Source: Spirochaetia bacterium (GTDB lineage: Bacteria > Spirochaetota > Spirochaetia > WTKD01 > G963693115). From it: a stretch of 64,000 nucleotides of DNA. The stretch covers positions 809,651 through 873,650 of the forward strand of contig OZ245332.1 in NCBI GenBank assembly GCA_965226065.1. The letters run 5' to 3'. How positions within the stretch are numbered: position 1 is the first letter of the stretch; each line of letters begins with the position of its first letter. Shown here piece after piece: positions 22,094 through 40,428 of this stretch. The position numbers and the translations under genes are program-made. Under the pieces are notes generated by a model. It was not told the DNA's origin. It made no database searches and was given only the letters and a program-made list of their open reading frames with translations.

Positions 22094-22894
22094 TTGAAAT
22101 TAGAAAAATACGAAGAGGCAATTGTAAATTTTGATAAAAGAATAGAATTAAAAAATAACTGTGCAGCGGCTTACAAAAACCGAGGAGACGATAAAGCAAA
22201 TCTAGGAATGTACGATAAAGCAATTTTAGATTACACAAAGTCTTTAGAATTAAATCCCGAAAACGCGGACACATACAACAATAGGAGCAACCTTTGTAAG
22301 GCAAAAGGAAAGTATGAAGAAGCAGAGAAAGATTATAACAAAACTATAAAATTAAAACCCAGGTATAAAGAAGCATACCACAATTTAGGAGTGGTAAAAA
22401 TAAAATTATCAAAATTCACAAACGCAATTTATTATTTTACACTTGCAATTAGTATCGAAAAAAAATGTGTAGCTACATTTCTCAATAGAGCAAACCCTAA
22501 AACAAAACCCGAGTACATTGAAAATCTCAAGCCGAAAAACGACCTAGTGGTGGCATATTTTAGAAGAGGGCTTGCAAAAAACAAATTTAAAAACTACAAA
22601 GGAGCGATAGAAGACTTTGATGAGTCAGTGAAGGCAATGCCCGGATTTGCCCACGCTCTTATGTGTAGAGACGATACTTTTAAGTTTTTAGAAAAACAAA
22701 GCAAGGAACGCAAACTACCGCCCGACCCTACAGTCGAAAAGCGCGAAAATCTTAAGGGATGGAATCCGATAGAGGCAACTTGTAGCTTTATAACAAAGAC
22801 AAAAGAAGAAATAAAAATTGTATCAGAAGAATACTTGAGACAAAGACTCAAAGGAAAGGATCCCGGTGAATGCGGAGCACTTCCATTTGATTAG
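22094..22894 (+). CDS. TPR-repeat protein (possibly truncated; TTG start in ORF track)
   Basis: Multiple 34-aa TPR units (AYKNRGDDKANLGMYDKAILDYTKSLELNPENADTYNNRS...). Confidence 0.55.
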   Translation: MKLEKYEEAIVNFDKRIELKNNCAAAYKNRGDDKANLGMYDKAILDYTKSLELNPENADTYNNRSNLCKAKGKYEEAEKDYNKTIKLKPRYKEAYHNLGVVKIKLSKFTNAIYYFTLAISIEKKCVATFLNRANPKTKPEYIENLKPKNDLVVAYFRRGLAKNKFKNYKGAIEDFDESVKAMPGFAHALMCRDDTFKFLEKQSKERKLPPDPTVEKRENLKGWNPIEATCSFITKTKEEIKIVSEEYLRQRLKGKDPGECGALPFD

Positions 22895-23052
22895 AGATAT
22901 ATACCTACAGAAATTACATTTCCACTTGAGCGATATCACACTTACGAGGTGGAGGGAGATACAAACAACGTTGTAACTCTTGACATCTCTGATGGCACGC
23001 TCTATGTCGCTGATTATGGAAATCATATCATTCGTAAACTAGAGTATAGATA
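22895..23052 (+). pseudogene. NHL-repeat fragment in the same frame as the TPR ORF, separated from it by a single TAG
   Basis: Translation RYIPTEITFPLERYHTYEVEGDTNNVVTLDISDGTLYVADYGNHIIRKLEYR* contains the NHL signature YVADxGNHxIRK. The offset from 22094 is 801 nt, so the two ORFs are in frame. Confidence 0.45.
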
Positions 23053-23066
23053 ACATACAGGCTGTA

Positions 23067-23110
23067 CAAAAGGGAAGCGCTTTTTTTTTATGCGCTTCCC
23101 TTTTTCTTAT
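23067..23110. terminator. Rho-independent terminator hairpin
   Basis: AAAGGGAAGCGC-ttttttttttat-GCGCTTCCCTTT with a T-run. Confidence 0.7.
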
Positions 23111-23151
23111 TAAAAAAAAGTAGCATAGTCTTACCCACCACCCCACAGCCC

Positions 23152-23306
23152 GTTTTAAGCACTAAAACACCATGTAATACATGACAAAATTGTAATGTAT
23201 TTTAGGTGAGAAAAGGCTTGAAAAAAAGAGTAAATGTACCATTATGTATATAGGTAGAAGTTTGTTTTAATCCTTAAAAAACTTTTACGTAGTACAGGAG
23301 TAATTC
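23152..23306 (+). promoter_or_regulatory. Conserved 5' expression module, copy A (promoter, inverted repeat, RBS) of the variable lipoprotein family
   Basis: The ~155-bp block CACTAAAACACCATGTAATACATGACAAAATTGTAATGTATTTTAGGTGAGAAAAGGCTTGAAAAAAAGAGTAAATGTACCATTATGTATATAGG...ACAGGAGTAATTC-ATG recurs about 5 times in the window. It carries TTGAAA/TATGTA-like hexamers, a 7-bp inverted repeat AATACAT-N14-ATGTATT, and AGGAG 8 nt before the ATG. Confidence 0.55.
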
Positions 23307-23925
23307 ATGACACATAAGAAACCTATATATATATATATATATATATATACTCATTACGATAGCATTAGTAAGCTGTGAACCCGACAAAGTACTATACAAA
23401 GTAATTCCACAAAAAGCAAAAATTATAAAGTCCTCCTTTGAAAAAGAAGCAGTATTCCTGAAATGGGATGTAAAGAAGCTAAAAGAAGAGAAGGTAGCAG
23501 CCTATGGAATATCGTATGGCATCGTGAATGGAAAGACGCTTAAAAAGCGAGAGGTAGTACCAAAGTTCATGGAAGCAGAAGGGTTCACGATACGCAAACT
23601 AGAAGAAGGAATACAGTATTGGTTTAAGGTGCAGGCAATCTACGAAGAATTTTCAGGACCGTGGTCAGAGAAAGCAGAAGGGATAACGGGTAAGCCACAG
23701 CCACCGGTAAATTTTAAGGTAAAGAAAAACACGGAAAAGGCAAAATGGTTTGTCAATGTATCATGGGAAAATAACCCATTGAATGATGAAAGAAAATTAA
23801 ATATAGAAGAATATAGGGTAAAGTGCTGGGACAGCAATAACCCTACAAGTAAATATGAAAAGACATTTTCATCTTTACTGTGGATAATGTACTATTCTGT
23901 ATACTTATCAATCAATAAAACATAA
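23307..23925 (+). CDS. Variable surface lipoprotein, N-terminal module copy A (phase-OFF at the TA tract; truncated after FN3-like domain)
   Basis: After the TA tract the frame ...ILITIALVSCEPDKVLYKVIPQKAKII...EVVPKFMEAEGFTIRKLEEGIQYWFKVQAIYEEFSGPWSEKAEG... is open to 23925. It diverges from the full-length paralogue after KYEKTFS and runs into the upstream region of the next gene. Confidence 0.55.
23324..23349 (+). repeat. (TA)13 tract inside codons 6-14 of lipoprotein copy A
   Basis: Counted directly. ATG at 23307, CCT at 23322-23324, then 26 nt of TA, then CTCATTACGATAGCATTAGTAAGCTGT. The signal peptide frame is +1 relative to the ATG, so this copy is OFF. Confidence 0.9.
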
Positions 23926-23957
23926 ATAAATATAATTAAAAAACAAGGAGAAATACT

Positions 23958-24734
23958 ATGAAAAAAATATATACAACAATACTAATTATTGCCTTAGCTT
24001 TATTCATCTCATGCGATGAGAAGAAAGCCGAAGATGATATTAAAAAAGCATTTACAAAGATTACCGATAAAGCGGGAGATGTAATAGACGCCGTAGACAA
24101 GACAACACCGAAGCCGAAAGGAAGCGGAACGCTTACGAATACCGAAGGTGAAGAAGCAGAAGACGAAGAGGCAGAAAGTGAAGGAGTTGAAGAGCCAGAA
24201 GACACACTAACACTAATAAAACCCGTACTAAACCGTGAAAATGCACCGTGGAGCAGAAGAATTGTATTTGCGAAAATAGCACAGCATACCTACAGATTAA
24301 AAGAAGAAAAAACAGGAGTAGCACTTACGGAGTATAACAGGGATATAATGCAAGTAACCGCCACGCAGTCCGCACAAAATGTAATCGTAGTCGCCACGTT
24401 TGACGGTAAGACTTCAGAAAGTAACCCTATTGAGTTTACAAGAATACCAGGCAATACCCTAAGCTTTGCACAGGCAAAACGAACAGAAAACGCATATACT
24501 ACCGAAAGCTATACCCAAGCAGCTACTAAAGGTGATACAGTTGCAGGAGATACCAGAAATATACAATATAGCATAAACCCTACAGGTGAAGGTGTTACCA
24601 TCGATAGCAGTAGCGGAGAGGTTACCATTCAAAGAGGCTCGGACCCAGCGGGAGACTATACTATTACCGCAGAACTTCCAGAAGATGAAAAATATACAAG
24701 AGCCACCGCAACATACAGCCTTACCGTTGAGTAG
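23958..24734 (+). CDS. Small surface lipoprotein paralogue (signal peptide, acidic linker, one Ig-like repeat, conserved C-terminal domain)
   Basis: MKKIYTTILIIALALFISC lipobox. Repeat core ATQSAQNVIVVATFDGKTSESNPIEF. C-terminal GDTRNIQYSINPTG...SSSGEVTI...YTITAELP..EKYTRATATYSLTV is shared with the 25645, 40429 and 41292 genes. Confidence 0.75.
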   Translation: MKKIYTTILIIALALFISCDEKKAEDDIKKAFTKITDKAGDVIDAVDKTTPKPKGSGTLTNTEGEEAEDEEAESEGVEEPEDTLTLIKPVLNRENAPWSRRIVFAKIAQHTYRLKEEKTGVALTEYNRDIMQVTATQSAQNVIVVATFDGKTSESNPIEFTRIPGNTLSFAQAKRTENAYTTESYTQAATKGDTVAGDTRNIQYSINPTGEGVTIDSSSGEVTIQRGSDPAGDYTITAELPEDEKYTRATATYSLTVE

Positions 24735-24846
24735 CGTAACACATGAAAAGCAAAGACATGAAAGGCTTAGAGGCAGATTACAAAATACATAAACGACTTG
24801 AAAAAAAGAAAGTAAAAGACTTAAAAAACTTGGCTAAAGAGGAAAG

Positions 24847-25005
24847 GAAAGCAAAAGACGCTAAAACACCATGTAATACATGACAAAATTGTAATGTATT
24901 TTAAGTAGAAAAAAGCTTGAAAAAAAGAGTAAATGTACCATTATGTATATAGGTAGAAGTTTATTTTTATCCTTAGAAAACTTTTACGTAGTACAGGAGT
25001 AATTC
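24847..25005 (+). promoter_or_regulatory. Conserved 5' expression module, copy B
   Basis: Near-identical to 23152-23306. Confidence 0.55.
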
Positions 25006-25622
25006 ATGATATATAAGAAACCTATATATATATATATATATATACCCTAATTACGATAGCATTAGTAAGCTGTGAACCCGACAAAGTACTATACACAGTA
25101 ATTCCACAAAAAGCAAAAATTATAAAGTCCTCCTTTGAAAAAGAAGCAGTATTTCTGAAATGGGATGTAAAGAAGCTAAAAGAAGAGAAAATAGCAGCCT
25201 ATGGAATATCGTATGGCATCGTAAATGGAAAGACACTTAACAAGCGAGAGGTAGTACCAAAGTTCATGGAAGCAGAAGGGTTTACGATACGCAAACTAGA
25301 AGAAGGAATACAGTATTGGTTTAAGGTGCAGGCAATCTACGAAGAATTTTCAGGACCGTGGTCAGAGAAAGCAGAAGGGACAACGGGCAAGCCACAGCCA
25401 CCGGTAAATTTTAAGGTAAAGAAAAACACGCTAGGGACAAAATGGTTTGTAGATGTATCGTGGGAAAATAACCCATTGAATGATGAAAGAAAATTAAATA
25501 TAGAGGAATATAGGGTAAAGTGCTGGGATAGCAATAACCCTACAAGTAAATATGAAAAGACATTTTCATCTTTACTGTGGATAATGTACCATTCTGTCTA
25601 CTTATCAATCGATAAAGTATAA
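25006..25622 (+). CDS. Variable surface lipoprotein, N-terminal module copy B (phase-OFF; truncated)
   Basis: Downstream frame TLITIALVSCEPDKVLYTVIPQKAKII...MEAEGFTIRKLEEGIQYWFKVQ... is open to 25622. It has the same truncation junction as copy A. Confidence 0.55.
25023..25044 (+). repeat. (TA)11 tract in lipoprotein copy B
   Basis: ATG at 25006. 22 nt of TA follow, then CCCTAATTACG, which is 2 nt longer than the CTCATTACG of the other copies. The lipoprotein frame is therefore +2, so this copy is OFF despite the same n as the ON copy. Confidence 0.9.
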
Positions 25623-25644
25623 GTAAAACAAAGGGAGAAATACT

Positions 25645-27006
25645 ATGAAGAAACTATATACAACAATACTAATTATTGCCTTAGCTTTGTTCATTTCATG
25701 CGATGAAAAGAAAGCAAAAGATGAAATTACAAAGGCACTTGATAAAGCGGTGGACGCGGTAGATAAGACAACACCGAAACTAACTAAACCCGTACTAAAT
25801 GCTACCCGTGTGAGAGTAGGAACAGCGGCTACATTCCCTAAAGTAGCAGGGTATACCTACACCTTAAAAGAGAAAAAAAGAGGAGTCAGAATAAGCGAAG
25901 GTACAAGTAACACAATGCAAGTCACCGCTACACAAGCAGCTAGCGGTGTTGTTGTAGTTGCGACTAAGGACGGTAATAGCATAGATAGCGAGCCTATAGA
26001 ATTTGTTATTATTGAGTTAACGAAACCCGCAGTAAGTAGCTACCGTGTGAGAACGGTACAAGTGGCTACATTCCCGAAAGTGTTAGGACATACTTATGAA
26101 TTGAAACAAGCTATAAGCGGTGTAAGCCTTGAGGTATCAGATGAGAGCATGGGACGAGTAACCGCTACACAAGCAGCAAGCAATGTAATCATAGTAGCAA
26201 CGCTTGACGGTAACACCGAGGAAAGCGACCCTATAGAATTTGTACTTATTGAGTTAATAAAGCCAGCAGTAAGTAGCAACCGTGTAAAAGTAGGAACACC
26301 GATTATACTTACAAAAGTAGAAGCACATACCTATAAATTGAAAGAAGAGGTAAGCGGCGTAAGTCTTGAGGTATCAGATGAGAGCACGGGAGAACTCACA
26401 GCCACGCAGTCCGCACAAAATGTAATTATAGTAGCCACGCTTGATGGTAATACCGAAGAAAGCGACCCTATAAATTTTATTGAGGTAATAAAACCCGCAG
26501 TAAGCGAAATTTCAGCACCCTGGGATACAGTAATTACATTCCCGAAAGAACCAGAGCATACTTATGAACTGAAAGAAGAAAAAACAGGAGTCACATTAAG
26601 CGAGGCTACCAGTGACACAATGCAAATCACCGCTACACAGTCCGCACAAAATGTAATTATAATTGCAACGGTTGACGGCTTAACTGAAGAAAGCGACCGT
26701 ATTGAGTTTAGAAGAAAGCAGGGTAATGCTTTAAGCTTTGCACAACCAAGACGATCGGAAAAACGAAGAACTACTTTTACGCAAACCGCTAGTAAAAGCG
26801 GAGCAGTTGCAGGAGATACCCGAGACATAACATATAGCGTATATCCTAGTGTTTTCGGTGTTAGTGTTGATAGCAGTAGCGGAGAAGTTGCAGTAAATTT
26901 TATTGCCGACTATAGACGGTATACTATTACCGCACAACTTCCAAGAACCGCAAAGTACGAAAGAAGCACCGCAACATATACACTTGTAGTCCCGAGATCG
27001 AAATAA
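25645..27006 (+). CDS. Surface lipoprotein paralogue with four tandem ~78-aa Ig-like repeats plus conserved C-terminal domain
   Basis: MKKLYTTILIIALALFISC. Repeats KPAVSS.RV..G....TKV..HTY.LK....GVSLEVSDES.G..TATQ.A.NVIIVATLDGNTEESDPIEF occur four times. C-terminal YTITAQLP..AKYERSTATYTLVV. Confidence 0.75.
   Translation: MKKLYTTILIIALALFISCDEKKAKDEITKALDKAVDAVDKTTPKLTKPVLNATRVRVGTAATFPKVAGYTYTLKEKKRGVRISEGTSNTMQVTATQAASGVVVVATKDGNSIDSEPIEFVIIELTKPAVSSYRVRTVQVATFPKVLGHTYELKQAISGVSLEVSDESMGRVTATQAASNVIIVATLDGNTEESDPIEFVLIELIKPAVSSNRVKVGTPIILTKVEAHTYKLKEEVSGVSLEVSDESTGELTATQSAQNVIIVATLDGNTEESDPINFIEVIKPAVSEISAPWDTVITFPKEPEHTYELKEEKTGVTLSEATSDTMQITATQSAQNVIIIATVDGLTEESDRIEFRRKQGNALSFAQPRRSEKRRTTFTQTASKSGAVAGDTRDITYSVYPSVFGVSVDSSSGEVAVNFIADYRRYTITAQLPRTAKYERSTATYTLVVPRSK
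25780..26725 (+). repeat. Intragenic tandem repeats (~234 bp x4) encoding Ig-like modules
   Basis: Seen as repeated peptide blocks in the 453-aa product and as repeated antisense ORF fragments. Confidence 0.7.
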
Positions 27007-27140
27007 TTAAAAGAAAAGCGAAGACATGAAAGACTTAAAGGCAGAAAATCAATCACAAAATGTAATGTAAGGACGAAAAAAAACAACCTTTTTACTGTGA
27101 ATAATCTACCATTCTGTCTACTTATCATAAGTAAATATAA

Positions 27141-27760
27141 TTGAAACACGCAGAGGAACGCGAAGAATATGAATTACGCGTGAAAGCAAGCACAAACACG
27201 GGAGATATTGTGAAGCCGACATTCAGACCTAGTAAAAGTGAGCCATGGGGAACGGATATAAGCTTTGAAAAGCTTGAGGGCTATACGTATGAATTGAAAG
27301 ACGACAAAGGTGGAGCAGTGAGCTTAGACACAAGCAGTGACCCTGCGAGAATAAGTGCGACAGAGTCTGTGAGCGCAGTAGTGATAGAAGTGAGACGTTC
27401 GGGATATAGTGGGAAAGTAGAAAGCGACCCGATTGAGTTTACGAAAAAAGCGGGCAACGGCTTGAGCTTTGTGAGCTCTTCAGAAGAGAAAAGAGTTAGC
27501 ACTGCTTCCGCAACATTTACGCAGAGCGCTACTAACGATAGAGCAGTTACAGGAGATGACAGATCCGTAGTGTACAGCATAAGCCCTACGGGACAAGGTG
27601 CCACGATAAACCCTAGTAGCGGTGAGGTGACAATAACACCAGCGGCCGCAATCAATGGCTTTACCGTTACCGCAACATTACCCGCAAACGCAAAGTATAC
27701 CGCTTCTAACACGGCAACATATACGCTTAATGTAGTGGCTCCACCGGGAACAAGAAAGGT
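27141..27760 (+). pseudogene. Promoterless mosaic fragment of the variable lipoprotein family (internal part of the 718-aa paralogue joined to a C-terminal-domain variant)
   Basis: Begins abruptly at AEEREEYELRVKASTNTGDIVKPTFRPSKSEPWGTDISFEKLEGYTYELKD... This block is nearly identical over ~100 aa to the middle of the minus-strand gene at 34593-36934. It then switches to ...GLSFVSS..ATFTQSATNDRAVTGDDRSVVYSISPTG..SSGEVTIT...YTLNV. It has no signal peptide or module upstream, only the family junction sequence at 27081-27130. Confidence 0.6.
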
Positions 27761-28418
27761 ACGCGTATTGGTATCGTTTAATTATCTTAACTTAATAAAA
27801 GGTAACAAAGGACAAATCTTGTGGATAAAAACAAGTATTATAAATGCGCATGCAGGGTACAGGGTCAGGGTATTCAAAATTATTCAATAATTACAGTGTC
27901 ATATACATGTATGATTATTTATTGTTATTAAAAACTTTATGCTTTAGCTTCGGCTTATAGCAGCTCCGGTATCTAGTCGTGCCGGCAGTATGGAATGCAT
28001 GTAATTTGCAAAATTATTTGCTTTGATTGTCTTTACTTACCCCTTATGAATTTTATAAGATGTGTATTGTATGTCCTAGTATTTTACCACGGTATTATAC
28101 ATGGTGTTTTTTATAGAAAAGGAGCAAAAGTATCGTTGCAAGTGAAAGAGAAATAATACTTACAAAGTTGAGACCTTTTCAATTTCTAACGGCGGAAGAG
28201 GAATTTTGATTTGAACCAATACTTTAACAGATACTATATCTTGAGTAGCACCATGTAAATATTTACTAATAAAATTAGTTAGAATTAACTTTAAATATTT
28301 TAAGGATAATAATTCAATCATTGTATTCAATTGTACTTTTCATCAGACGCTATTAAAGTGTGCATACAATATAATAAAATTACCTTATTTCTAAATAATA
28401 CAAGAGCGGAGTTATTAT

Positions 28419-29714
28419 ATGCTTGATATTAAATACATCGTAAAGAATGCATCTCGTTTTAGTACATCTGCACAGCAGAGAAATGTACGCGACTTCGTAC
28501 CAGAGCTCGTAGGCTTGTACGAAAAGAGTCTCATCATACAACAAGAATTAGAAACACTCTCTCAAGAACGAAACCATGTAGCAAAAGAAATTTCACAAAA
28601 AAAGGACGATGGACGCGCACGCCTTGTAGCACGCGGCAAAGAACTGAAAATGCAAATATCCGAGCATGACGCAGAACTGAAAAAGCTACAAAACGATATT
28701 CAATCGCTTGCCTTACAAATTCCAAACATACACCATCCGTCTGCACCACTTGGAAAAGAAGAAAAAGATAATCTCGTCATAAAAACGCATGGCACTGCAC
28801 GACAATTTTCTTTCACACCTAAAAGCCATATAGATTTGTGTACTGAACTCAATATTGTAGATTTTACCAACGCGACAAAAGTATCAGGACCGAAATTTTA
28901 CTACTTGAAAAATGAAGCGGTGTTATTAGAACTCGCACTTATACGCTTTGGAATTGACATACTACGCGAACATGGCTTTACAATTTTTGAAACACCTGAC
29001 ATTGCGCGCACTTCTATTGTCGAAAGTATCGGGTTTCTTCCGAGAGGAAATGAAAGTAACATTTACAACATTGAAGATGAAGGTACATCTCTTATCGGTA
29101 CGGCAGAAATAACCCTCGGTGGCTATTATGCAGATAGCATTATACCGTTGGAGTTACTGCCTATAAAAATGGCAGGAATTTCGCATTGCTTTCGCCGAGA
29201 ATCAGGTGCAGCAGGACAATATTCAAAAGGACTGTATCGTGTACATCAGTTTACGAAACTGGAAATGTTTGTTTTTTGCCATCCTGATAAATCAGAAACA
29301 ATGCATGAGGAATTATTGACGATAGAAGAACAACTGTATCAAAAGTTAGAAATCCCATACAGAATCGTAGATACCTGCACGGGAGATTTAGGAGCATCCG
29401 CCTACAGAAAATTTGACATAGAGGCGTGGATGCCAGGACGCGGAAAAACCGGCGAGTACGGCGAAATTACAAGTGTATCAAATTGTACCGATTATCAATC
29501 GCATAGGCTTAGTATACGCACACAAGACGAAGATTCCTCACACAATAAAATAAGGATATTTCCTCACACGTTAAACGGCACGGCACTTGCCATACCTCGA
29601 ACGCTTATTGCGATTGTAGAAAATTTTCAAAACGAGGATGGAAGTATACGTATACCCGATGTACTTATTCCTTATTGTGGTTTTTCATCTGTGAAGAAAA
29701 GCCACAATTCGTAA
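28419..29714 (+). CDS. serS: Seryl-tRNA synthetase
   Basis: 431 aa. N-terminal coiled-coil arm plus class II core (motif 2 region FRRESGAAG, motif 3 region). Confidence 0.9.
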   Translation: MLDIKYIVKNASRFSTSAQQRNVRDFVPELVGLYEKSLIIQQELETLSQERNHVAKEISQKKDDGRARLVARGKELKMQISEHDAELKKLQNDIQSLALQIPNIHHPSAPLGKEEKDNLVIKTHGTARQFSFTPKSHIDLCTELNIVDFTNATKVSGPKFYYLKNEAVLLELALIRFGIDILREHGFTIFETPDIARTSIVESIGFLPRGNESNIYNIEDEGTSLIGTAEITLGGYYADSIIPLELLPIKMAGISHCFRRESGAAGQYSKGLYRVHQFTKLEMFVFCHPDKSETMHEELLTIEEQLYQKLEIPYRIVDTCTGDLGASAYRKFDIEAWMPGRGKTGEYGEITSVSNCTDYQSHRLSIRTQDEDSSHNKIRIFPHTLNGTALAIPRTLIAIVENFQNEDGSIRIPDVLIPYCGFSSVKKSHNS

Positions 29715-29728
29715 TATTTCACAAACCG

Positions 29729-30835
29729 ATGCACGAATTTATAGCAGAGATAGGCACTTCGCATCTCGGATCTTTTGAAAAAGCAAAATGCATGATAGAT
29801 GCAGCGCGTAAGGCAGGTGCAACAACTGCAAAGTTTCAATGGGTTATAGCCGATGAAATAATTTCAAAGCATGCGGGTATTATTACCCTACCTAATGGAG
29901 ATACAAACATCTACGAGTATTTTTTGTCAGTGGAAAAAGATAAAGATTTTTACGCAAAACTTAAATCTTACACAGAGAAATGCGGCTTAGAATTTTTATG
30001 CAGTGTCTTTGGGCTAAAATCTCTGCATCTATTGCTACAACTAAACCCAAAGAGAATAAAAATAGCCTCACCCGAAATAAACCATAGAGAACTCTTACAG
30101 TCCCTTGCACAACATAAAGTCGCAGTAGTGCTCTCAAGTGGTGTATCAACTTTGATAGATTTATTACGAGCGGTCAATATTCTACGTGCAGGCAAAATAG
30201 AAGATATTGCTATATTACGCTGCGTTACAGAATATCCTGCTTCACCTTATTCGTACGCACTACAATTACTGGAAAAATACCAAACACTCTTTCAATGCCA
30301 ATGCGGAATATCTGACCACACGCAAGAAACTTCAATACTTCCTACTATCGCAGCAGCATATGGAAGCACGATGGTAGAAAAACATTTTTTTCTCCCTAAT
30401 GAACACGACGAGGTAACACGCTGTCCTGATGATCCTATTGCATTATCACCTCATGCATTTTCTGAAATGGTAAAATCTACTACAAACATCGCAACAATAT
30501 ACAAAACAAAAGGCCATCGCGCTGCAAAAACTGCGGTTAAAAAATGCTATGGTGAGAAGACCGTTCACGCAGTTATAGGTACTAGACAATCTTCAAAAAA
30601 ACAAAAACATAGCGCTGCATTGTTACCTCATTACTTTACTACGCGAAGAAGTCTTTTTGCGCGTACAAACATAGCAAAAGGGAATATACTCACACCACAA
30701 AATTGTATATTGCAGCGTAGTGAACACAACACAAGGCCGGGTATACCCACTGAAGCATATACCACAATTTTGGGTAAAAAAGTACATTCGAAAATAGCAA
30801 AAGGCATGCCAATAACATTTGAACATTTCCTGTAG
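29729..30835 (+). CDS. NeuB-family nonulosonic-acid (sialic/pseudaminic/legionaminic acid) synthase-like protein with SAF domain
   Basis: N-terminus FIAEIGTSHLGSFEKAKCMIDAARKAGATTAKFQ matches the NeuB TIM-barrel signature (IAEIG.NH.G....A..MI..A...GA...KFQ). The C-terminal ~60 aa are SAF/antifreeze-like. Start taken at MHEFIAE. Confidence 0.65.
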   Translation: MHEFIAEIGTSHLGSFEKAKCMIDAARKAGATTAKFQWVIADEIISKHAGIITLPNGDTNIYEYFLSVEKDKDFYAKLKSYTEKCGLEFLCSVFGLKSLHLLLQLNPKRIKIASPEINHRELLQSLAQHKVAVVLSSGVSTLIDLLRAVNILRAGKIEDIAILRCVTEYPASPYSYALQLLEKYQTLFQCQCGISDHTQETSILPTIAAAYGSTMVEKHFFLPNEHDEVTRCPDDPIALSPHAFSEMVKSTTNIATIYKTKGHRAAKTAVKKCYGEKTVHAVIGTRQSSKKQKHSAALLPHYFTTRRSLFARTNIAKGNILTPQNCILQRSEHNTRPGIPTEAYTTILGKKVHSKIAKGMPITFEHFL

Positions 30836-30917
30836 GAGTAATTGAGAAAAAGCATTGAGACTATGCAGAAAACTCTAAATCTCATCAAGGTTATTTTCAA
30901 TATATTTGATTATATTT

Positions 30918-31626
30918 AGAAGAAGGAGAACCACTAAAAGAAGGTATCAGAGAAGTAGAAAGAGCAGGAAGGTTTTTTCACTATTTCGCTGCAGAAGCAT
31001 TGAGAAACATCGGCGATTTTGTAGACTCAGTTCGTACAGAAGTACAAATAGAAGTATTTAGAGTGCCGGTAGGTACCGTACTTGTTATCACGCCATGGAA
31101 TTTTCCTGTTGCACTCCCTGCATGGAAAATAGCTCCTGCACTTGCCTTTGGTAACAGCGTTATCTTAAAACCTGCTTCCACTACTCCAGCTAGTGCCTGT
31201 GCCTTGGCAAAAATAATTCACGAAGCAGGAGTGCCTGAAGCTGTGTTTCAAATGCTACTCAGCGACTCTGTACTCGGAGAAACATTGGTAAAAAATCCCG
31301 CATTTGATGCAGTAAGCTTTAGAGGATCCTTTGCCGTAGGACGCAATATTGCAAGACTCTCAGGTGAGCTACTACGCCACTTCCAATTAGAAATGGGCAG
31401 CAAAAACGCACTCATCATCCTTGATGATGCCGACATTGATATTGCAGTAGCCTGTGCAATCAATGGTGCCTTTGGTGGTACAGGGCAAAAATGCACTGCA
31501 TCCTCTCGCATCATTGTAAGCGAAGGAATATACAAAACCTTTCTCGAAAAATTCACAGAAGCGGCTTCACAATTTAGGCTATTCGGGAGGTATGTTAGGA
31601 CTAAGCCTATATCCTTTTCATCTTAA
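30918..31626 (+). pseudogene. Aldehyde dehydrogenase family gene remnant (central ~230 aa only)
   Basis: Open frame ...[23 protein letters not shown]...[32 protein letters not shown]...ELGGKNA-like LEMGSKNALII...GQKCTASSR. It lacks the first ~100 aa and the C-terminal catalytic Cys domain end. Confidence 0.6.
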
Positions 31627-31654
31627 AAATACCTCTGATTGTCAGATATCTGAC

Positions 31655-31756
31655 ATGATGGACGAAATAAAACGTATAGTTGATTTGGTGGGAATAGATC
31701 ATGTCGCATTAGGTACAGATATTTGTCAAGGTCGCTCTGTGCAAGAATTAGAATAA
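31655..31756 (+). pseudogene. Fragment resembling the C-terminal end of a membrane dipeptidase (M19)
   Basis: The 34 codons MMDEIKRIVDLVGIDHVALGTDICQGRSVQELE* resemble the IDHVGIGSDFDG region of M19 dipeptidases. Very short, so the call is tentative. Confidence 0.35.
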
Positions 31757-31766
31757 CTGAAGCGGT

Positions 31767-32997
31767 GTGTTTTGGGCAGCAGGAGAACCTATCGCACATT
31801 TTCTCAATCCTCCTCCACTTTTTGGTGTAGAAGGCAAAACGGCAGAAGCTGTTGCCCCCTGCATTAGCACAAAGTTTTATGCACTGGGGATTTTTAGCAT
31901 GGGCTATTGCAGGAACTCTTACTGCCATCGTCATGATGTACTACTGTTACAACAAAAAGTTACCTTTCAAACCACGGACACTTCTCTATCCCATATTTAA
32001 AGAAAAAATAATGACAGGACCCTTAAGTATACTTGTCAATGCAAGTTGTATTATTGCAGTGGTAGCAGGTACCGTAGGTCCAATTGGATTTTTAGGATTA
32101 CAGGTAGGCTATGGCTTGAATAAAATGCTCAATATTCCTAATAATGCTATAACACAATCTGCCATTATATTATTACTCATGATAATTTATGTAAGTTCAG
32201 CCGTCTCAGGAGTTTCAAAAGGTATACAATTACTTAGTAGGATCAATGTTATTATTGCAATTGGATTGACGATTTTCATTGTCTTCTTTGGTAAGGTAGA
32301 ATTTATCGTAGATTCATATTTACAATCCTTCGGATTATATATTTCTGAATTTCTTTCTATGTCGCTTTATAGAGGTGACAGTACATGGTTAAGTTGGTGG
32401 ACAGTTTTTTTCTGGGGATGGTTTTTAGGATACGGACCTTTGATGGCAATTTTTATAGCGCGTATATCAAAAGGTAGAACTATACGAAATGTTATTATTA
32501 CAACTTCTATAATTGGTCCATTGATTATGACATTTTGGTTCACTATTGTAGGCGGAAGTGGTATATTCTTTGAACTTAACAATCCCAATTCTATTGCAGG
32601 AGCATTTGAAGGATTTAATCTTCCTGCGGCACTAATTGCCATAACCACGCAACTTCCATTTGGTACATTACTTACCTATATTTTTATTATTCTCACATTC
32701 ATTTTTGTTGCTACTACTGGCAACTCCATGACATTGAGCATACCCATATGCATGACAGGAGATGAGAATCTTAGCACACTTACTCAAGTATTTTGGGGCG
32801 TTTTTATGTGACTCATGGCAATTGTTCTTGTGCTGATGGGAGCAGGCAGCATATCTGCTTTGCAATCGTTTATTGTTATTACCGCGATACCTGTTTCTTT
32901 GATACTTCTACCTTCGCTATTGCAGAATAATATTTACACCCTATCTTTACTTAATTTCAAAGTAATCAAAATACCAAATACTCGCGGTGATACATAG
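31767..32997 (+). pseudogene. BCCT-family (betaine/carnitine/choline) transporter gene disrupted by frameshifts
   Basis: Three consecutive ORFs in different frames (31767-32000, 31852-32811, 32815-32997) together carry BCCT sequence. This includes the family signature WTVFFWGWFLGYGPLMAIFIARISKGRTIR. Confidence 0.65.
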
Positions 32998-33006
32998 CAT
33001 ATATAA

Positions 33007-34464
33007 CTAATACGCTTTGGCAAACACCGCGAAATATTGTGCCTTGCAGCCTGTGTATATGCACCTATGCGTGTCTTTTGGTACTTCTTCATGCAGTATA
33101 CGAATGGTCGCCTTGGTTTTTTCCTTAATGGCAATTTCAGTTTGTGAAGTACCATCCCATGGAGCGATAACATAGCCCGAAACATCACTTTGCATATGCG
33201 AAACTAACTCATCAAAAGTAAAAACACGCCGTGTATGCGCATCTACAAAATTACGCGCTTTGTTCAACAAGTCGCCTTGCATAGTATTAAGGGTAATACC
33301 TACGTATTCATGCGCCTTTTCTAAGGGTAGAAAAACCTTCTCACCTGTATCACGACGCACCACAACACATTGATTTTTTTCTAAATCTTTCGGACCGATT
33401 TCAATGCGTATGCAGGCACCGCGCAACTCCCACTCTGCAAATTTCCACCCCGGTGAGGTAGTATCATCGCTATCACATGTTACCCTATAATCAGTAGAAA
33501 GCGTTTTTGTAAGAGACTGCGCCATCTCTTCTATAGCGCGCTTATCTGTGCCTTTTTTATAAATAGGAATTACCACAACATGAGTAGGCGCAATTTTTGG
33601 CGGAACAACCAAGCCCTTATCATCAGAATGTGTCATGATAACCGCGCCTATAAGGCGTGTAGAAACTCCCCACGATGTTGCCCACACGTAGTCAAGTTTC
33701 AAATCACGCGTTTGATATTGAACCTCAAAAGCTTTTGCAAAATTCTGTCCAAGAAAATGAGATGTGCCTGCCTGTAAAGATTTACCATCCTGCATTAGCG
33801 CTTCTATACCATATGTTTCTACCGCGCCTGCAAATTTTTCTTCCTCAGATTTTCTGCCATAGAGAATAGGCAAAGCAAGTACATCTTGTGCAAATTGCTT
33901 GTAAATTTCAAAGATGCGCAAGGTCTCTTCTCGTGCTTCTGCTTCACTTTCATGTGCCGTATGCCCTTCTTGCCACAAAAATTCCGTTGTACGCAAAAAA
34001 GGACGAGTGCGTTTTTCCCATCGCACCGCATTTGCCCATTGATTTATCAAAATTGGCAGGTCTCTATAAGACTGTATCCATTTTTTGTACATGCTCCAAA
34101 TTATCGTTTCAGATGTCGGTCGCACTATAAGTGGCTCTTCCAATGTGTCTCCCCCACCGTGTGTCACAACCGCAAGCTCGGGAGCAAAACCATCTACATG
34201 CTCACGCTCTTTGGCAATAAAACTCTGCGGTATAAAAAGAGGAAAATACGCATTCACATGTCCCGTCTCCTTCAAACGAGCATCAAGATGTTCTTTCAAA
34301 AGCTCCCACATAACATAGCCACGTGGACGAATGACCATACATCCTTTGATAGAGCTGTAATCAGCGAGCTCAGCACGCGTTACAATGTCTAAATACCATT
34401 GCGAGTAATCATCTTTTTGAGAAGTAATTTTTTTCTCCATCTTTCTTAGTATAGCAAAGCGCAT
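33007..34464 (-). CDS. proS: Prolyl-tRNA synthetase, archaeal/eukaryotic-type
   Basis: 485 aa. N-terminus ...[18 protein letters not shown]. Class II motifs. No bacterial-type insertion domain. Confidence 0.9.
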
Positions 34465-34592
34465 GATGCAACTAAAATGTAAATTTTCGAGAGTAAAAAT
34501 CTGATTTTTGAAAGAATATTTTGATGTGTAATAAATACTTAACTACTACAAAATAAAAAGTAAAATGTTATCCCCTAAGGCGGACTTGCAAG

Positions 34593-36934
34593 TTAATTGT
34601 ATTTTCTTATGCGATAACAAAGACCCTTTTTCCAATTCCCGTCTCTATGTGTCCCAGTTGCACTGCAGTGATATTCATGCAGTTTTACTGTTATTTTATA
34701 AGATGCTGTACTTTCCGTATACTTCTCATTTTGTTCTTTTTTCGCAGTAATTGTTTCTGTTTTTGATCCTCTAAAAATTATAAGTCGATCCATATCAATT
34801 CTAGAAGATGATGCTGTGTATATAATTCTTCTTTTGTCGCCGGGGATATCTCTGCTTACACGCACCTTTTGAAGCCTTGCTCGTCCAAAAGCGTTTCTGA
34901 TTTTCCCAAACTTTGGCACATTAACTGTTAGCATAAAAGGTCCTGTTTTTGTAAAGAAAAGCGTATCGCCCGTTTGCCTCGTAAACGTTATCGGGACACT
35001 GTCTATGACAGCTTCTTCGTATTTCGAATCTCCAGGTAGTATCGCTTGTACAATTACATTTTCAGCAAACTGATTAGCGGTAATTTTTCCATTGCCTAGT
35101 GTCACTCCAGTATGACGGTTTTTCAATTTATACCTATGCAGCGGTGCAGGGGTAAATGTAATAGCTGTTCCCCACGGCACACTCGTTTTACTGAATATAG
35201 GCTTTGTCGCAGGTCTCGTCTGCTTCGTAAACTCAATCGGGACACTGTCTATGACAGCTTCTTCGTATTTCGAATCTCCAGGTAGTATCGCTTGTACAAT
35301 TATATTTTTAGCAAACTGATTAGCGGTAATTTTTCCATTGCCTAGTGTCACTCCAGTATGACGGTTTTTCAATTTATACCTATGCAACGGTGCAGGGGTA
35401 AATGTAATAGCTGTTCCCCACGGCACACTCGTTCTACTGAATATAGGCTTTGTCGCAGGTCTCGTCTGCTTCGTAAACTCAATCGGGTCGCTTTCTACTT
35501 TCCCACTATATCCCGCACGTCTCACTTCTATCACTACTGCGCTCACAGACTCTGTCGCACTTATTCTCGCAGGGTCACTGCTTGTGTCTAAGCTCACTAC
35601 TCCGCCTTTGCTGTCTTTCAATTCATACGTATAGCCCTCAAGCTTTTCAAAGCTTATATCCGTTCCCCATGGCTCACTTTTACTAGGTCTGAATGTCGGC
35701 TTCACAATATCTCCCGTGTTTGTGCTTGCTTTCACGCGTAATTCATATTCTTCGCGTTCCTCTGCGTATTTATCATCCGCTGCCTTCCTCGCTGTTATCG
35801 TAAATGTATTGCCTACCGCTGCTGCCTCAATGCTCACTTCACCACTACTGCCGTCTATTCTCGCTCCACTGCTACTCGGATTTATGCTGTATCGCACGGG
35901 TGTGTCTTCAGGGTCAGTTTCTGTAATTACATGCGTATATTTGTTTTCATTTGTGTTAAACATGAAATCATGACTTGCACTTTCAAACTTAAATCTATCT
36001 CCCGCTTGCCTCGTAAATGCTATTTCTGCACTTTCTTCTTTTCCCTCATATTCTGTGTGTGTCACTTCTATCACTACTGCACTCACAGACTCTGTCGCAC
36101 TTATTCTCGCAGGGTTATTGCTTATGTCTAAGCTCACTACTCCGCCTTTGCTGTCTTTCAATCTATACTTATGACCTTCAAGCATTCCAAAGGTAATGTC
36201 TGTTCCCCACTGCACACTCGTTTGACTGAATGCTGGCGCTTCTATCGCCTTTGCTGTGGTGCTTCTCCTCTCTACCGTGCTTCTTACTCCTTTGTCTGTC
36301 TCTATGTACAATTCACATATATACTCTTTTCCCGCTTTTAGCGCTAACTCATTCATCTTCATAGAAACTTCTTCTTGTGACGCTTCTTTCTCTTTAGCTA
36401 CCCCTCCTGTCTCATTACACTTCACTTTGTAGCTGTAACGTATCTCTAAGTCTTCGTTCACCTCGTTCTTTTTCCAGCGTAACTCAAGACTTCGTTTGCC
36501 ATCTTTTGTGGGCTGCTTTATTATCTTAAAATCTGTAGGTGGTTCTGGTTGCCCCGTTGTCCCTTCTGCTTTCTCTGACCACGGTCCTGAAAATTCTTCG
36601 TAGATTGCCTGCACCTTAAACCAATACTGTATTCCTTCTTCTAGTTTGCGTATCGTAAACCCTTCTGCTTCCATGAACTTAGGGACTACCTCTCGTTTGT
36701 TAAGAGTCTTGCCGTCTACTATGCCATATGATATTCCATAGGCTGCCACCTTCTCTTCTTTTAGCTTCTTTACATCCCATTTCAGAAATACTGCTTCTTT
36801 TTCAAAGGATGCTTTTATAATTTTTGCTTTTTGTGGAATTACTGTGTATAGTACTTTGTCGGGTTCACAGCTTACTAATGCTATCGTAATGAGTATATAT
36901 ATATATATATATATATAGGTTTCTTATGTGTCAT
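34593..36934 (-). CDS. Variable surface lipoprotein copy C (~780 aa if in frame; phase-OFF at TA tract)
   Basis: ATG at 36934 (MTHKKP...), (TA)12 at 36894-36917, then the signal peptide frame is shifted (offset 41 nt, not divisible by 3). The downstream frame is open to 34593. It carries the FN3-like N-module, Ig-like domains and an internal 83-aa duplication. Confidence 0.6.
34985..35482 (-). repeat. Intragenic ~249-bp direct duplication in copy C
   Basis: TKQTRPATKPIFS(R/K)TSVPWGTAITFTPAPLHRYKLKNRHTGVTLGNGKITANQFA.N.IVQAILPGDSKYEEAVIDSVPI.F occurs twice. The DNA is near-identical. Confidence 0.75.
36894..36917 (-). repeat. (TA)12 tract in copy C
   Basis: Counted on the plus strand between GAG (36891-36893) and GG (36918-36919). 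Confidence 0.9.
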
Positions 36935-37088
36935 AAATTACTCTTGTACTGTGTAAAAGTTTTCTAAGAATTAAAACAAACTTTTACCTACATATATAAT
37001 GGTACATTTACTCTTTTTTTCAAGCCTTTTTTTACCTAAAATACATTACAATTTTGTCATGTATTACATGGTGTTTTAGCGTCTTTAG
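36935..37088 (-). promoter_or_regulatory. Conserved 5' expression module, copy C
   Basis: Reverse complement matches the copy A/B module. Confidence 0.55.
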
Positions 37089-37248
37089 ACATACTGCTTA
37101 TGCTTTTGCCTCTATCATGTCACGGCTGATAGGTAGACAGAATAGGGTATTATCCACAGTAAAATAATACTGAAATATAACACGCTTACATTACATTTTA
37201 CGCTTGCACCTCATCGATGTTTGGACATTCTTTGTCGCTTGTTTTCTT

Positions 37249-40158
37249 TTACCATGCCCATTTCGGCTTATTTGATTTCTGCATTGCGGTTGCACTCATG
37301 AATATGTATTGGGCGTTTCTTCCGCTTTTGTCTACCCAAGCGGTTAAGTCTTGATTGAATGAAGTAGCAAAGTAGAACATATAGCTCATGGCTGTTACAC
37401 TTGATACATCCCAATTATTAAGCGACTGATTGAATGAAGTAGCCTCTCTGAACATATGGCTCATTTCTGTTACACTCGATACAGTCCAATTATTAAGCGG
37501 CTTATTGAATGAGGTAGCATTTTGAAACATACTCCACATTTCTGTTACACTCGATACAGTCCAATTATTAAGCGGCTGATTGAATGAAGCAGCATTGTCA
37601 AACATATGGCTCATGGTTGCTACACTCGATACATCCCAATTATTAAGCGGCTGATTGAATGAAGTAGCATTGTAAAACATACCGCTCATGTCTGTTACGC
37701 TTGAGGTGTTCCATTTGCTAATGTCACCGTTAAAAGTAGCATTGTTATAAAAAAGCTCGCTCATATCGGTTATGTCTGAAGTATCGATGTAGTTTAGATC
37801 TACTTCGTTGCCGTGTGCTCTTATGGCTTGCTTAATTTCGTATATCAATTCTGCTTTAGTTGGGGTTTTGAATTTTGCCACTGTTAGCTGGTATGATGCT
37901 CTTTGTGCTTCGTATTTTGCACTTTGTGCCTTTCTTGCTGTTATTGTAAATGTATTGCCTATCGCTGCTACTGTAAAGTCTACTTTACCGCTTACGCTAT
38001 CTATGCTCGCAACTGCTCCCGTGGGACTGATGCTATATTCGATGTCCCTAGTATCACCGCTTACGCTTCTATCATTAGTAGCAACCTGTGTATAAGTATT
38101 TCCACCTGTTGCATACATGGTATTCTTATTCACGGTTGCAAAGCGGATCGTACTACCTGCCTGCCTTCTAAACTCAATAGGATCACTTTCTACGCTTCCC
38201 GTATAACCTCTACGCTTTGCAACAATAATAATATTTGCTGCTGGCTGTGTTGCTGTTATTTGCCCGGTACTCTTATCAAACGCTACCCCGGTTATAGCTT
38301 GTTTCAATTCATAGCTATGATCCACTACTTTTGTAAGTCTGATAGGTGTACCCCACCTCTCGCTTCTTTTGCTTACCGCTGGTTTTGTAATATCTCCTGT
38401 GTTTGTATTTGCTTGCACTCTTAGCTGGTATGATGCTCTTTGTGCTTCGTATTTTGCACTCTGTGCCTTTCTTGCTGTTATCGTAAATGTTGTCCCTATC
38501 GCTGCTAGTGTAAAGTCTACTTTACCGCTTCCCGTATCGATGCTTGCACCTACTCCCGTGGGACTGATGCTATACGATACGACTCCCGTATCTCCTGCTA
38601 CTACTCTATCGTTAGTAACCGTCTGTGTATGAGTATTTCCCTTGCCGTATTGTACCGCTACATCGATGTTTGCAAAGCGGAGCGTACTACCTGCTTGTCT
38701 TGTAAACTCAATAGGATCGCTTTCTACGCTTCCCGTATAACCTCTACGCTTTGCCACAATAATAATCCTTGCTGCTGGCTGTGTTGCTGTTATTTGCCCG
38801 GTACTCTTATCAAACACTACCCCGGTTATAGCTTGTTTCAATTCATAGCTATGATCCGCTACTTTTGTAAGTCTGATAGGTGTACCCCAGCTCTCGCTTC
38901 TTTTGCTTACCGCTGGTTTTGTAATATCTCCTGTGTTTGTATTCGCTTGCACTCTTAGCTGGTATGATGCTCTTTGTGCTTCGTATTTTGCACTTTGTGC
39001 CTTTCTTGCTGTTATCGTAAATGTCTTGCCGACTGCTCCTAGCGTAAAGTCTACTTTACCGCTTCCCGTATCTACGCTTGTACCTGCTCCCGTGGGACTG
39101 ATGCTATACGATACGACTCCGGTATCTCCTGCTACTACTTTATCGTTAGTAACAGTTTGTGTATGAGTATTTCCGCTTTTTCCATATTCTATCGGTACAT
39201 CAATGTTTACAAAGCGAAGCGTATTGCCTGCTTGTCTCGTAAACTCAATAAGTTCACTTTCTGCACTCCCTGTATAGCCTGTGCGTTTTGCAACAATAAT
39301 AATCCCTGTTACCGGCTGTGTTGCTGTTACTTGCCCGGTGCTCTCATCAAACACTACCCCGCTTATAGCTTGTTTCAATGCGTAGCTATGATCTACTACT
39401 TTTGTAAGTGTAATCGGTGTTCCCCACCTTTCGCTTCTTTTACTTACCGCTGGTTTCTCTATATCATCAAACGCAAGTACTCCGCTTTGCTTTACTTCGC
39501 TTAGCGTTCCTTTATCTGTTTTTACCTGCACACTACAAACATAGTTCACCTTCCCGCTTGTCTCCAGTACTCCTTTTGTAGATACCTTTGTAGGTGCTGA
39601 AAATGTCTTTTCATATTTACTTGTAGGGTTATTGCTATCCCAGCACTTTACCCTATATTCTTCTATATTTAATTTTCTTTCATCATTCAATGGGTTATTT
39701 TCCCACGATACATCTACAAACCATTTTGTCCCTAGCGTGTTTTTATCTACCTTAAAGTCTACCGGTGGCTCTGGCTTACCCGTTGTTCCTTCTGCTTTCT
39801 CAGACCAGGGTCCCGCAAACTCTTCATAGATTGCCTGCACCTTAAACCAATATTGAGTCCCTTCTTTTAGCTTGCGTATTGTAAAGCCTTCTTTTTCCAT
39901 GAACTTAGGCACTACTTCTCGTTTGTTAAGAGTCTTGCCGTCTACTATGCCATATGATATTCCATAGGCTGCCACCTTCTCCTCTTTTAGCTTCTTTACA
40001 TTCCATTTTAGAAATACTGCTTCTTTCTTAAAGGAGGACTCTATAATTTTCGCTTTTTGTGGAATTACTGTATATAGTACTTTGTCGGGTTCACAGCTTA
40101 CTAATGCTATCGTAATGAGTATATATATATATATATATATAGGCTTTTTATGTCTCAT
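37249..40158 (-). CDS. Variable surface lipoprotein copy D, full length and in frame (969 aa): FN3-like N-module, 3x178-aa Ig-like repeats, C-terminal DUF285/BspA-like repeat array
   Basis: ATG at 40158. MRHKKPIYIYIYILITIALVSCEPD... with lipobox LVSC. (TA)11 is in frame. The ORF is continuous to 37249. Confidence 0.85.
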   Translation of the reverse strand: MRHKKPIYIYIYILITIALVSCEPDKVLYTVIPQKAKIIESSFKKEAVFLKWNVKKLKEEKVAAYGISYGIVDGKTLNKREVVPKFMEKEGFTIRKLKEGTQYWFKVQAIYEEFAGPWSEKAEGTTGKPEPPVDFKVDKNTLGTKWFVDVSWENNPLNDERKLNIEEYRVKCWDSNNPTSKYEKTFSAPTKVSTKGVLETSGKVNYVCSVQVKTDKGTLSEVKQSGVLAFDDIEKPAVSKRSERWGTPITLTKVVDHSYALKQAISGVVFDESTGQVTATQPVTGIIIVAKRTGYTGSAESELIEFTRQAGNTLRFVNIDVPIEYGKSGNTHTQTVTNDKVVAGDTGVVSYSISPTGAGTSVDTGSGKVDFTLGAVGKTFTITARKAQSAKYEAQRASYQLRVQANTNTGDITKPAVSKRSESWGTPIRLTKVADHSYELKQAITGVVFDKSTGQITATQPAARIIIVAKRRGYTGSVESDPIEFTRQAGSTLRFANIDVAVQYGKGNTHTQTVTNDRVVAGDTGVVSYSISPTGVGASIDTGSGKVDFTLAAIGTTFTITARKAQSAKYEAQRASYQLRVQANTNTGDITKPAVSKRSERWGTPIRLTKVVDHSYELKQAITGVAFDKSTGQITATQPAANIIIVAKRRGYTGSVESDPIEFRRQAGSTIRFATVNKNTMYATGGNTYTQVATNDRSVSGDTRDIEYSISPTGAVASIDSVSGKVDFTVAAIGNTFTITARKAQSAKYEAQRASYQLTVAKFKTPTKAELIYEIKQAIRAHGNEVDLNYIDTSDITDMSELFYNNATFNGDISKWNTSSVTDMSGMFYNATSFNQPLNNWDVSSVATMSHMFDNAASFNQPLNNWTVSSVTEMWSMFQNATSFNKPLNNWTVSSVTEMSHMFREATSFNQSLNNWDVSSVTAMSYMFYFATSFNQDLTAWVDKSGRNAQYIFMSATAMQKSNKPKWAW
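37280..37770 (-). repeat. C-terminal array of ~6 x 27-aa repeats (FNQPLNNWDVSSVT.MS.MF.NATS), DUF285 / BspA-like LRR type
   Basis: Repeated peptide DISKWNTSSVTDMSGMFYNATSFNQPLNNWDVSSVATMSHMFDNAASFNQPLNNWTVSSVTEMWSMFQNATSFNKPLNNW... Period is 81 bp. Confidence 0.7.
37860..39470 (-). repeat. Three near-identical ~534-bp intragenic tandem repeats (178 aa each)
   Basis: Protein blocks KPAVSKRSE.WGTPI.LTKV.DHSY.LKQAI.GV.FD.STGQ.TATQP...IIIVAKR.GYTGS.ES.PIEF.RQAG.T.RF......TITARKAQSAKYEAQRASYQL.VQANTNTGDIT occur three times. The antisense ORFs 37808-38095, 38369-38632 and 38903-39166 are almost identical. Confidence 0.85.
40120..40141 (-). repeat. (TA)11 tract in copy D (in-frame, ON)
   Basis: ATG first base at 40158. 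First base of CTC (Leu) at 40119. Offset is 39 nt, so in frame. Confidence 0.9.
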
Positions 40159-40307: not shown

Positions 40308-40428
40308 TTTTTCTTTCCTTTCCTCTTTAGCCAAGTTTTTTAAGTCTTTTGCGTTCTTTCTTTTCAAGTCGTTTATGCATTTTGTAATCTGCCTCTAAGC
40401 CTTTCATGTCTTCGCTTTTCATATTCCG

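Follow-up and report, generated by a model that had tools for sequence, protein, structure and literature searches.

The open reading frame at 27141–27890 (+) of the window, the 64 000-nucleotide stretch of DNA from an uncultured spirochaete that was analysed here, is probably what remains of a surface-lipoprotein gene truncated at its 5′ end by microhomology recombination, in a locus whose sequence points to phase variation and gene conversion. The frame has 249 codons counted from TTG 27141, opens with ...KHAEEREEYELRVKASTNTGDIVKP and continues to a stop codon at 27888–27890, well beyond the end at 27760 given by an earlier sequence-only reading of the same DNA; it is already annotated publicly as a protein (P0001). 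TTG 27141 overlaps a TATAAT box (27136–27141) and lies just 3′ of an in-frame TAA (27138–27140). At the sequence level, the fragment offers this frame no ATG, no lipoprotein signal peptide or lipobox and no correctly spaced Shine–Dalgarno sequence, and a test for an alternative functional start or export signal at the same level found none; the sequence-only reading, in which the fragment lacks a start module, a ribosome-binding site (RBS) and a signal peptide, is borne out. The sole Shine–Dalgarno-like GAGGA (27153–27157) serves an out-of-frame ATG at 27169 that opens a four-codon frame (MNYA-stop), the TGA of which is overlapped by GTG 27180. The fragment frame itself begins within the last β-strand of an Ig-like domain.

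Segment R (27144–27445, +) encodes this last Ig-like strand (AEEREEYELRV), a linker and one β-sandwich repeat module of ∼80 residues. A BLAST search of 26950–28000 against the window matched 27144–27445 (+) to 35771–35470 (−) with 98.0% identity over 302 bp (six mismatches), an identity beyond chance. The partner (35470–35771) lies in inverted orientation within copy C, a 779-residue lipoprotein gene at 34593–36933 (−), and the near-identity of ∼300 bp to a minus-strand paralogue that had been proposed as an inverted repeat is confirmed. Pairwise alignment of the fragment with copy C shows that both ends of the match are abrupt and maps the breakpoints at 27144 and 27445/27446, the latter directly after ...PIEFTK, where the previously described switch to a variant C-terminal Ig-like domain is also seen. 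This variant, T1 (27446–27760, +), is a unique form of the second (cadherin/Ig-like) domain of the family and shares 98% amino-acid identity with its orthologue in a sister genome and 41–56% with any other retrieved copy. The fragment is 41–50% identical to nine other aligned module pairs, and to the right of 27445 the best matches in the window are only 54–84 bp long at 75–81% identity. The read-through tail (27761–27890, +) consists of 43 codons of non-family sequence up to the stop and is kept in the sister genome except for a 6 bp indel; a frameshifted family module hidden after 27760 was ruled out, since none is present in any frame. An AlphaFold model of the fragment, built on the family alignment, displays two β-sandwich domains with a pLDDT of 90, and its closest matches in the PDB are tandem cadherin/Ig-like domains.

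The sister genome, a contig of 1 800 608 bp (ENA ERZ25067893), was reached through the SerRS cluster member P0005; its SerRS clusters with that of the window at ≥90% identity. Its serS locus, L001, is 98.8% identical to the window over 27144–30916 and 96.6% over 31762–37105, and the homology between the two genomes ends exactly at window position 27143/27144. In L001 the sequence of the fragment forms the end of a 551-codon frame with the same unusual tail and the same serS flank, and upstream of this frame lie the promoter region and ATG of a large gene, (TA)11, a lipobox-bearing signal peptide and an FN3 domain. The gene would encode a 633-residue lipoprotein ending in ...AHAGYRVFKIIQ if the tract were (TA)10 or (TA)13. 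A full-length equivalent is therefore found at the orthologous position (L001 7570–9473, beside serS), in the one sister genome compared, and the window fragment is its 3′ third. Since the EFTK join lies inside this full-length gene, it is ancestral and was not created when the fragment formed, which contradicts the proposal that a segment of copy C was spliced to a C-terminal variant. The serS–proS block has the same orientation in both genomes (one sister genome compared), and collinearity is lost upstream of the breakpoint. The two genomes differ at 5 of 1296 positions in serS, 12 of 1458 in proS and 18 of 627 in the fragment (pS = 0.054, pN = 0.021). The resulting pN/pS of ∼0.38 comes from only 18 differences; together with the still open frame, it suggests either that decay is recent or that the sequence is still constrained.

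The left junction joins an upstream region, ...TATAATTGAAACAC, to internal coding sequence, GCAGAGGAACGC (KY/AEEREEY, where the slash marks the breakpoint). At a second sister locus, L082, an intact copy of the upstream cassette, termed J, reads ...TAAGTAAATATAATTGAAACAC followed by AAGGAGGGTATTAGAGATG; in copy C, as in the sister orthologue, the sequence is ...GATGATAAATAC followed by GCAGAGGAACGCGAAGAATATG. The window reads ...TAAGTAAATATAATTGAAACAC followed by GCAGAGGAACGCGAAGAATATG: it is identical to the L082 cassette up to the breakpoint (27149) and past it follows coding sequence of the copy C type (AAATAC/GCAGAGGAACGC). The crossover microhomology is AAA[C/T]AC at 27144–27149 (+), in which C27147, the mismatch at position 4 of the R repeat, is of the cassette type, and the next base, G27150, is of the coding type. 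Around the crossover, AAACACAAGGAGG (5′ UTR and RBS) and AAATACGCAGAGG (codons KYAEE) match at 9 of 13 positions. The AAA[C/T]AC junction, which stands in the fragment in place of AAGGAG-N7-ATG, is the signature of illegitimate, microhomology-mediated recombination. The sequence-only reading had put the junction at a shared element; the true junction is 20 nt downstream, inside AAA[C/T]AC. In a sister gene, P0021 (L082 7874–8000), a 5′ module that comprises (TA)6, a signal peptide and ...VIPQKA runs straight into EAQTAEYQLTVQANTNT. This places the endpoint of the deletion at the equivalent KY/EAQ position, at the end of an Ig-like domain, as in the window fragment; the shared KY endpoint could be a hotspot, or a coincidence arising from A-rich microhomology.

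The J cassette of the fragment occupies 27057–27149 (+), as aligned with the upstream regions of intact genes, and contains the box AAAATGTAATGTAAG (27057–27071), the core TTTTTACTGTGAATAAT..CCATTCTGTCTACTTATCA (27089–27127), TATAAT (27136–27141) and GAAACAC (27143–27149). The 39-mer TTTTTACTGTGAATAATCTACCATTCTGTCTACTTATCA at 27089–27127 recurs at 25569–25607 with at most three mismatches and more loosely at 23874 (+), 37163 (−) and 41207 (−); a search of shuffled sequence returned no matches. Further copies of J in the window are located at 23825–23957 and 25522–25644 (+) and at 41134–41256 and 37127–37212 (−). The alignment comprised the window copies and five more from the two sister-genome loci; in L001, J is present at 1055–1176, 3466–3590, 4384–4510, 5640–5769 and 7208–7300. 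The consensus extends over ∼100–110 nt and consists of AAAATGTAATGTAAG, a variable stretch of ∼20 nt, TTTTACTGTGRATAAT..CCATTCTGTCTACTTATCA, (ATAAAG)TATAAT, TAAAACA, AAGGAG, N7 and ATG. In the window and the sister-genome loci J stands before at least eight intact genes, at a fixed distance from AAGGAG-N7-ATG, and the genes behind it encode small lipoproteins, DUF285 proteins, an EcoRI-methylase-like protein and a 172-residue protein; it sits 36–50 nt 5′ of the ATG in intact paralogues and in unrelated genes. Two orphan copies (window 37163–37127 and L001 7256–7292) end after ...TATCA, before large-gene 5′ modules.

J is predicted to be a shared promoter-proximal/5′-UTR cassette of surface-gene families. 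A promoter function is suggested by its conservation and by the position of its TATAAT; a scan with the σ70 consensus gave no convincing score for J. The fragment keeps J through TATAAT and GAAACAC, with AAGGAG-N7-ATG and the signal peptide gone, and the retained J could drive transcription of the remnant. Calling the fragment promoterless is therefore not supported, as a TATAAT-bearing J precedes intact paralogues too. Of the 50 bp junction element that had been described in front of the fragment, the sharing stands; its length is ∼100 nt (27057–27149) and its role as a junction falls away. J was also considered as a site-specific recombination site and rejected: the breakpoint is 20 nt past the core, many intact genes carry J at a fixed distance from their ATG and no recombinase was found nearby among the 28 frames scanned.

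From these features we propose the following course of events. The starting state would be a complete large surface-lipoprotein gene, of which the fragment preserves the 3′ third (linker, repeat module and T1). Illegitimate recombination would then have joined the 5′ UTR of another family member nearby, cut immediately ahead of the RBS, to codon ∼385 of the large gene (KY/AEEREEY). In this event the large gene would have lost its promoter region and ATG, its (TA)n signal peptide, its FN3 domain and the first of its repeat/Ig pairs. The remnant may still be transcribed from the retained J; it would have no usable start or export signal and so would yield no surface protein. The 302 bp inverted repeat would let it join passively in gene conversion or inversion, and it could act as a partner for copy C in recombination. 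As genes cannot arise with a start partway through a β-strand, the headless state should be the derived one, a polarity that rests on one sister genome and on this mid-domain argument. We infer likewise the direction of the event, its single-step nature and the lack of expression. Because the upstream regions are not collinear, the event may belong to a larger rearrangement and not be a simple deletion. The sequence-only view of the fragment as a recombination by-product and not an ordinary expressed gene is supported by the missing RBS, start and signal peptide and by the mid-domain start. That reading had set against itself the case of a pseudogene of a once-complete local gene, and this is essentially what the fragment proves to be, with a rearrangement as the lesion and not the point mutation it had named.

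The window contains five large-gene 5′ modules, all with (TA)11–13 inside the signal-peptide codons (MxHKKP-(IY)n-LITIALVSC); the tracts are located at 23324–23349 and 25023–25044 (+) and at 36894–36917, 40120–40141 and 42460–42483 (−). Only the module of a 969-residue gene (37249–40158) is in frame. Copy C, with its ATG at 36933, is switched off by (TA)12 at 36894–36917, and its frame is restored by (TA)11 or (TA)14; more generally, one TA unit more or fewer restores open reading frames of 779 (copy C) or 204 residues. These tracts have the hallmarks of classic slipped-strand phase variation, here with TA as the repeated dinucleotide and the signal peptide of a spirochaete lipoprotein as its site. 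Contingency genes with simple sequence repeats are known from other bacteria, such as Neisseria opa with CTCTT repeats in its signal-peptide codons (PMC11868660, PMC4534519). The complete relatives of the fragment (copy C, the 969-residue gene and the sister orthologue) resemble opa in carrying (TA)11–13 with on/off switching by one unit, and differ from it in their repeat unit, the dinucleotide TA, which encodes (IY)n, and in being spirochaete lipoprotein genes. The fragment itself, unlike opa, has lost the tract and cannot phase-vary. In L001, (TA)11 lies between the ATG after J (∼4508) and the called EcoRI-methylase-like frame (4553–5569), and a phase-variable DNA methyltransferase (phasevarion) is a possible reading of 4508–5569.

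The neighbourhood is rich in partial and duplicated copies. Truncated large-gene 5′ modules at 23162–23871 and 24854–25568 (+) and at 42122–42631 (−) contain the promoter region, ATG, TA tract, signal peptide and part of FN3, and each immediately precedes an intact small lipoprotein gene (23958, 25645 and 42092−, respectively). One of these genes, lipoB (25645–27006, +; 453 residues), is the upstream neighbour of the fragment; it has its own J at 25571–25644, and its stop codon is 135 nt before the fragment frame. Regions 23162–24112 and 24861–25778 form a tandem duplication (90.7%). Whole repeat modules are tandemly duplicated in copy C (34971–35497, −; 281 bp, 95.7%) and in the 969-residue gene (37879–39456, −; 1.04 kb, 87.7%), and both duplications are recent. 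The serS–proS block (28419–34464) is enclosed by inverted paralogous arms at 23162–27890 (+) and 34593–42631 (−); the sister genome has an inverted repeat of 1.6 kb at 97.5% identity beside the block (L001 7399–9034 versus 20261–18623). Within the sister genome, paralogues resemble one another more closely than positional orthologues do across the two genomes, which indicates concerted evolution. Some of the fragment-specific residues recur in P0015, a further gene of the copy C type from elsewhere in the genome of the window. These patterns indicate exchange among the paralogues, in which the fragment may participate.

Between serS and proS, pieces of aldehyde dehydrogenase (Aldedh), peptidase M19 and BCCT transporter genes are found (window 31000–32811, L001 12775–16033), and segments of 334 bp and ∼1.2 kb from this pseudogene stretch of the sister genome are absent from the window. 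Fragmented genes and missing stretches fit a small (1.8 Mb) genome in reductive or deletional decay. Deletion scars appear to be common in the lineage, to judge from the P0021 fusion, the truncated 5′ modules and the 334 bp and 1.2 kb losses. Scans with Pfam and NCBIfam detected no recombinase, integrase, transposase or invertase among 28 of the window's frames of at least 150 residues, and an Rfam scan of 22800–42800 returned no RNA family. A gene for a Fic/DOC-domain protein (window 5591–6757) lies among housekeeping genes.

An exhaustive profile (HMM) search retrieved 582 proteins at E ≤ 0.001, about 25 of which match the whole two-domain module; all seven of these that were traced to their source belong to the two genomes. 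Other retrieved matches have diverged too far to count as copies of genes in the window. A word-indexed protein search gave only the query and one paralogue and, given the 582 HMM matches, evidently misses relatives. The family was not found in one scan of GTDB representative genomes or in two scans of JGI metagenomes. GroEL is at most 77% identical to any GTDB representative found; its best matches are all Spirochaetia and include termite-gut Treponema MAGs and an oligochaete endosymbiont.

A small share of the probability goes to a functional silent cassette or switch partner, with the headless fragment kept as an archive of T1. In the switch version, RecA-type recombination across the 302 bp repeat would invert the 8 kb serS–proS block and join T1 to the phase-variable module of copy C, recreating the gene type of the sister genome; alternatively, short gene-conversion tracts would carry polymorphisms between copies. 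Such a role would agree with the 98% inverted repeat, and also with the distribution of differences: R has six mismatches to copy C and five to the sister copy C, compared with 13 to its own positional orthologue, and its synonymous divergence from the orthologue is 0.078, against 0.007–0.022 in serS and proS. Among five copies of R the patches EP/VS, DK/SK/NR, AVS/VVS/VVI and RRS/RRA occur in mixed combinations, the 5′ modules are 94% identical between positional orthologues and 98% between sister-genome paralogues, and T1 occurs nowhere else among the retrieved proteins. Against this, the 64 kb hold a single fragment of this kind and no repertoire, and there is no right-hand anchor beyond 27445 for converting T1 into an expression site. 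An invertible segment would, moreover, hold essential genes and has the same orientation in both genomes, the left junction looks like a random microhomology scar and not like a recombination site, and no recombinase was found among the 28 frames scanned.

For the definitions of donor-cassette and inversion systems we relied on PMC4534519, PMC2632889, PMC8480903 and PMC3899283. Antigenic variation by gene conversion is known from Neisseria pilS, Anaplasma msp2, Mycoplasma genitalium MgPar, Treponema pallidum tprK and Borrelia vls (PMC4534519). The fragment is like the donors of these systems in copying only part of a surface-protein gene and lacking an RBS, start and signal peptide, in passing from a stretch almost identical to a complete paralogue into divergent sequence, and in belonging to a family with signs of ongoing sequence exchange. 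It is unlike them in that it is the only headless R–T1 fragment in 64 kb, among complete paralogues that each have their own start; shared sequence lies only on its left (302 bp), so that the variable segment is not bracketed on both sides; it retains the promoter-proximal J with TATAAT; and it is demonstrably left over from a gene that the sister genome has in full length. The evidence here consists of sequence patterns, whereas the donor systems are marked by unidirectional transfer into an expression site. The earlier suggestion of a silent donor cassette finds no support: the fragment is alone in the 64 kb and has recombination-grade homology to a complete gene on one side only, and neither a repertoire nor, among the 28 frames scanned, a recombinase was found.

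The 3′ ends of the phage Mu G segment and the plasmid R64 shufflon are switched by inversion. Inversion-based switching also operates in Mycoplasma pulmonis vsa (PMC4534519). An arrangement of this type, in which R–T1 and copy C would form a homology-driven inversion switch on top of TA-repeat phase variation, seems to us unlikely. A flip would swap T1 against the two modules and tail of copy C on a single phase-variable expression module. As in Mu G, the shufflon and vsa, there is a constant 5′ expression module outside the invertible segment, and alternative 3′ ends stand in opposite orientation, bounded by inverted repeats (27144–27445 versus 35771–35470). In place of short sites for a recombinase, however, the repeats here are 302 bp of ordinary coding homology; the 28 frames scanned include no gene for a recombinase, housekeeping genes lie between the repeats and a single orientation was observed in the two genomes. 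Were the switch real, the fragment would be kept as the archive of a surface domain that is otherwise unique, in an uncharacterized, genome-reduced spirochaete.

In Borrelia hermsii an intraplasmidic deletion activates a downstream vmp pseudogene (vmp7/vmp26; as summarized in PMC4534519). The present locus is similar in that the headless member lies directly downstream of an intact lipoprotein gene on the same strand, lipoB, with which it shares a short direct repeat (26688–26740 versus 27419–27471, 81%). By analogy, and purely hypothetically, a deletion across this repeat could fuse lipoB to T1; in contrast to vmp7/vmp26, the direct repeat is short and of low identity, and no fused variant was seen.

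Expression of the fragment as an ordinary gene, giving a 249-residue protein from TTG 27141 or a product from GTG 27180 by termination–reinitiation after the MNYA mini-ORF, is quite improbable. The 249 codons are open and annotated as a protein, J with its TATAAT is retained, GTG 27180 overlaps the TGA of the mini-ORF and the two-domain AlphaFold model is confident (pLDDT 90). TTG 27141, however, overlaps the −10-like box and is thus probably upstream of the transcript start, and no in-frame start has a Shine–Dalgarno sequence at a working distance. The complete relatives are all lipoproteins with a signal peptide and a lipobox, whereas the fragment frame lacks both and begins partway through a domain. 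The GTGA overlap is incidental: in copy C, as in the sister genome, these nucleotides simply belong to the interior of a coding sequence. In our view the fragment should not carry a 249-residue protein annotation.

A further candidate, a split gene with the 5′ module at 24854–25568 as its other half, parted by insertion of lipoB, was not supported: this module together with the 3′ end of lipoA is collinear at 84% with the lipo234/969-residue gene pair, and, because 5′ modules are homogenized among paralogues, its 96.5% match to the sister orthologue carries no diagnostic weight. An assembly mis-join between paralogous repeats, with a chimeric junction absent from the cell, is very improbable, for although the locus is full of 85–98% repeats and the sole comparator genome differs exactly at the junction, mis-joins normally fall inside long identical repeats and this junction shares only ∼6 identical bases, the flanks on both sides are unique and coherent and the source contig is a 1.85 Mb chromosome-scale record.

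Taken alone, the fragment is a routine gene remnant in an unusually recombination-prone family, one that combines FN3, cadherin/Ig-like and DUF285 modules on lipoproteins. Its value is that of a dated marker: genomes that are 0.4–0.8% apart in serS and proS differ here by a whole rearrangement, and their surface-protein modules differ by 3–6%. The family would thus be reshaped fast, by microhomology deletions, gene conversion between inverted arms and slippage of TA repeats, which makes the locus a candidate region of antigenic or phase variation for host-associated, genome-reduced spirochaetes.
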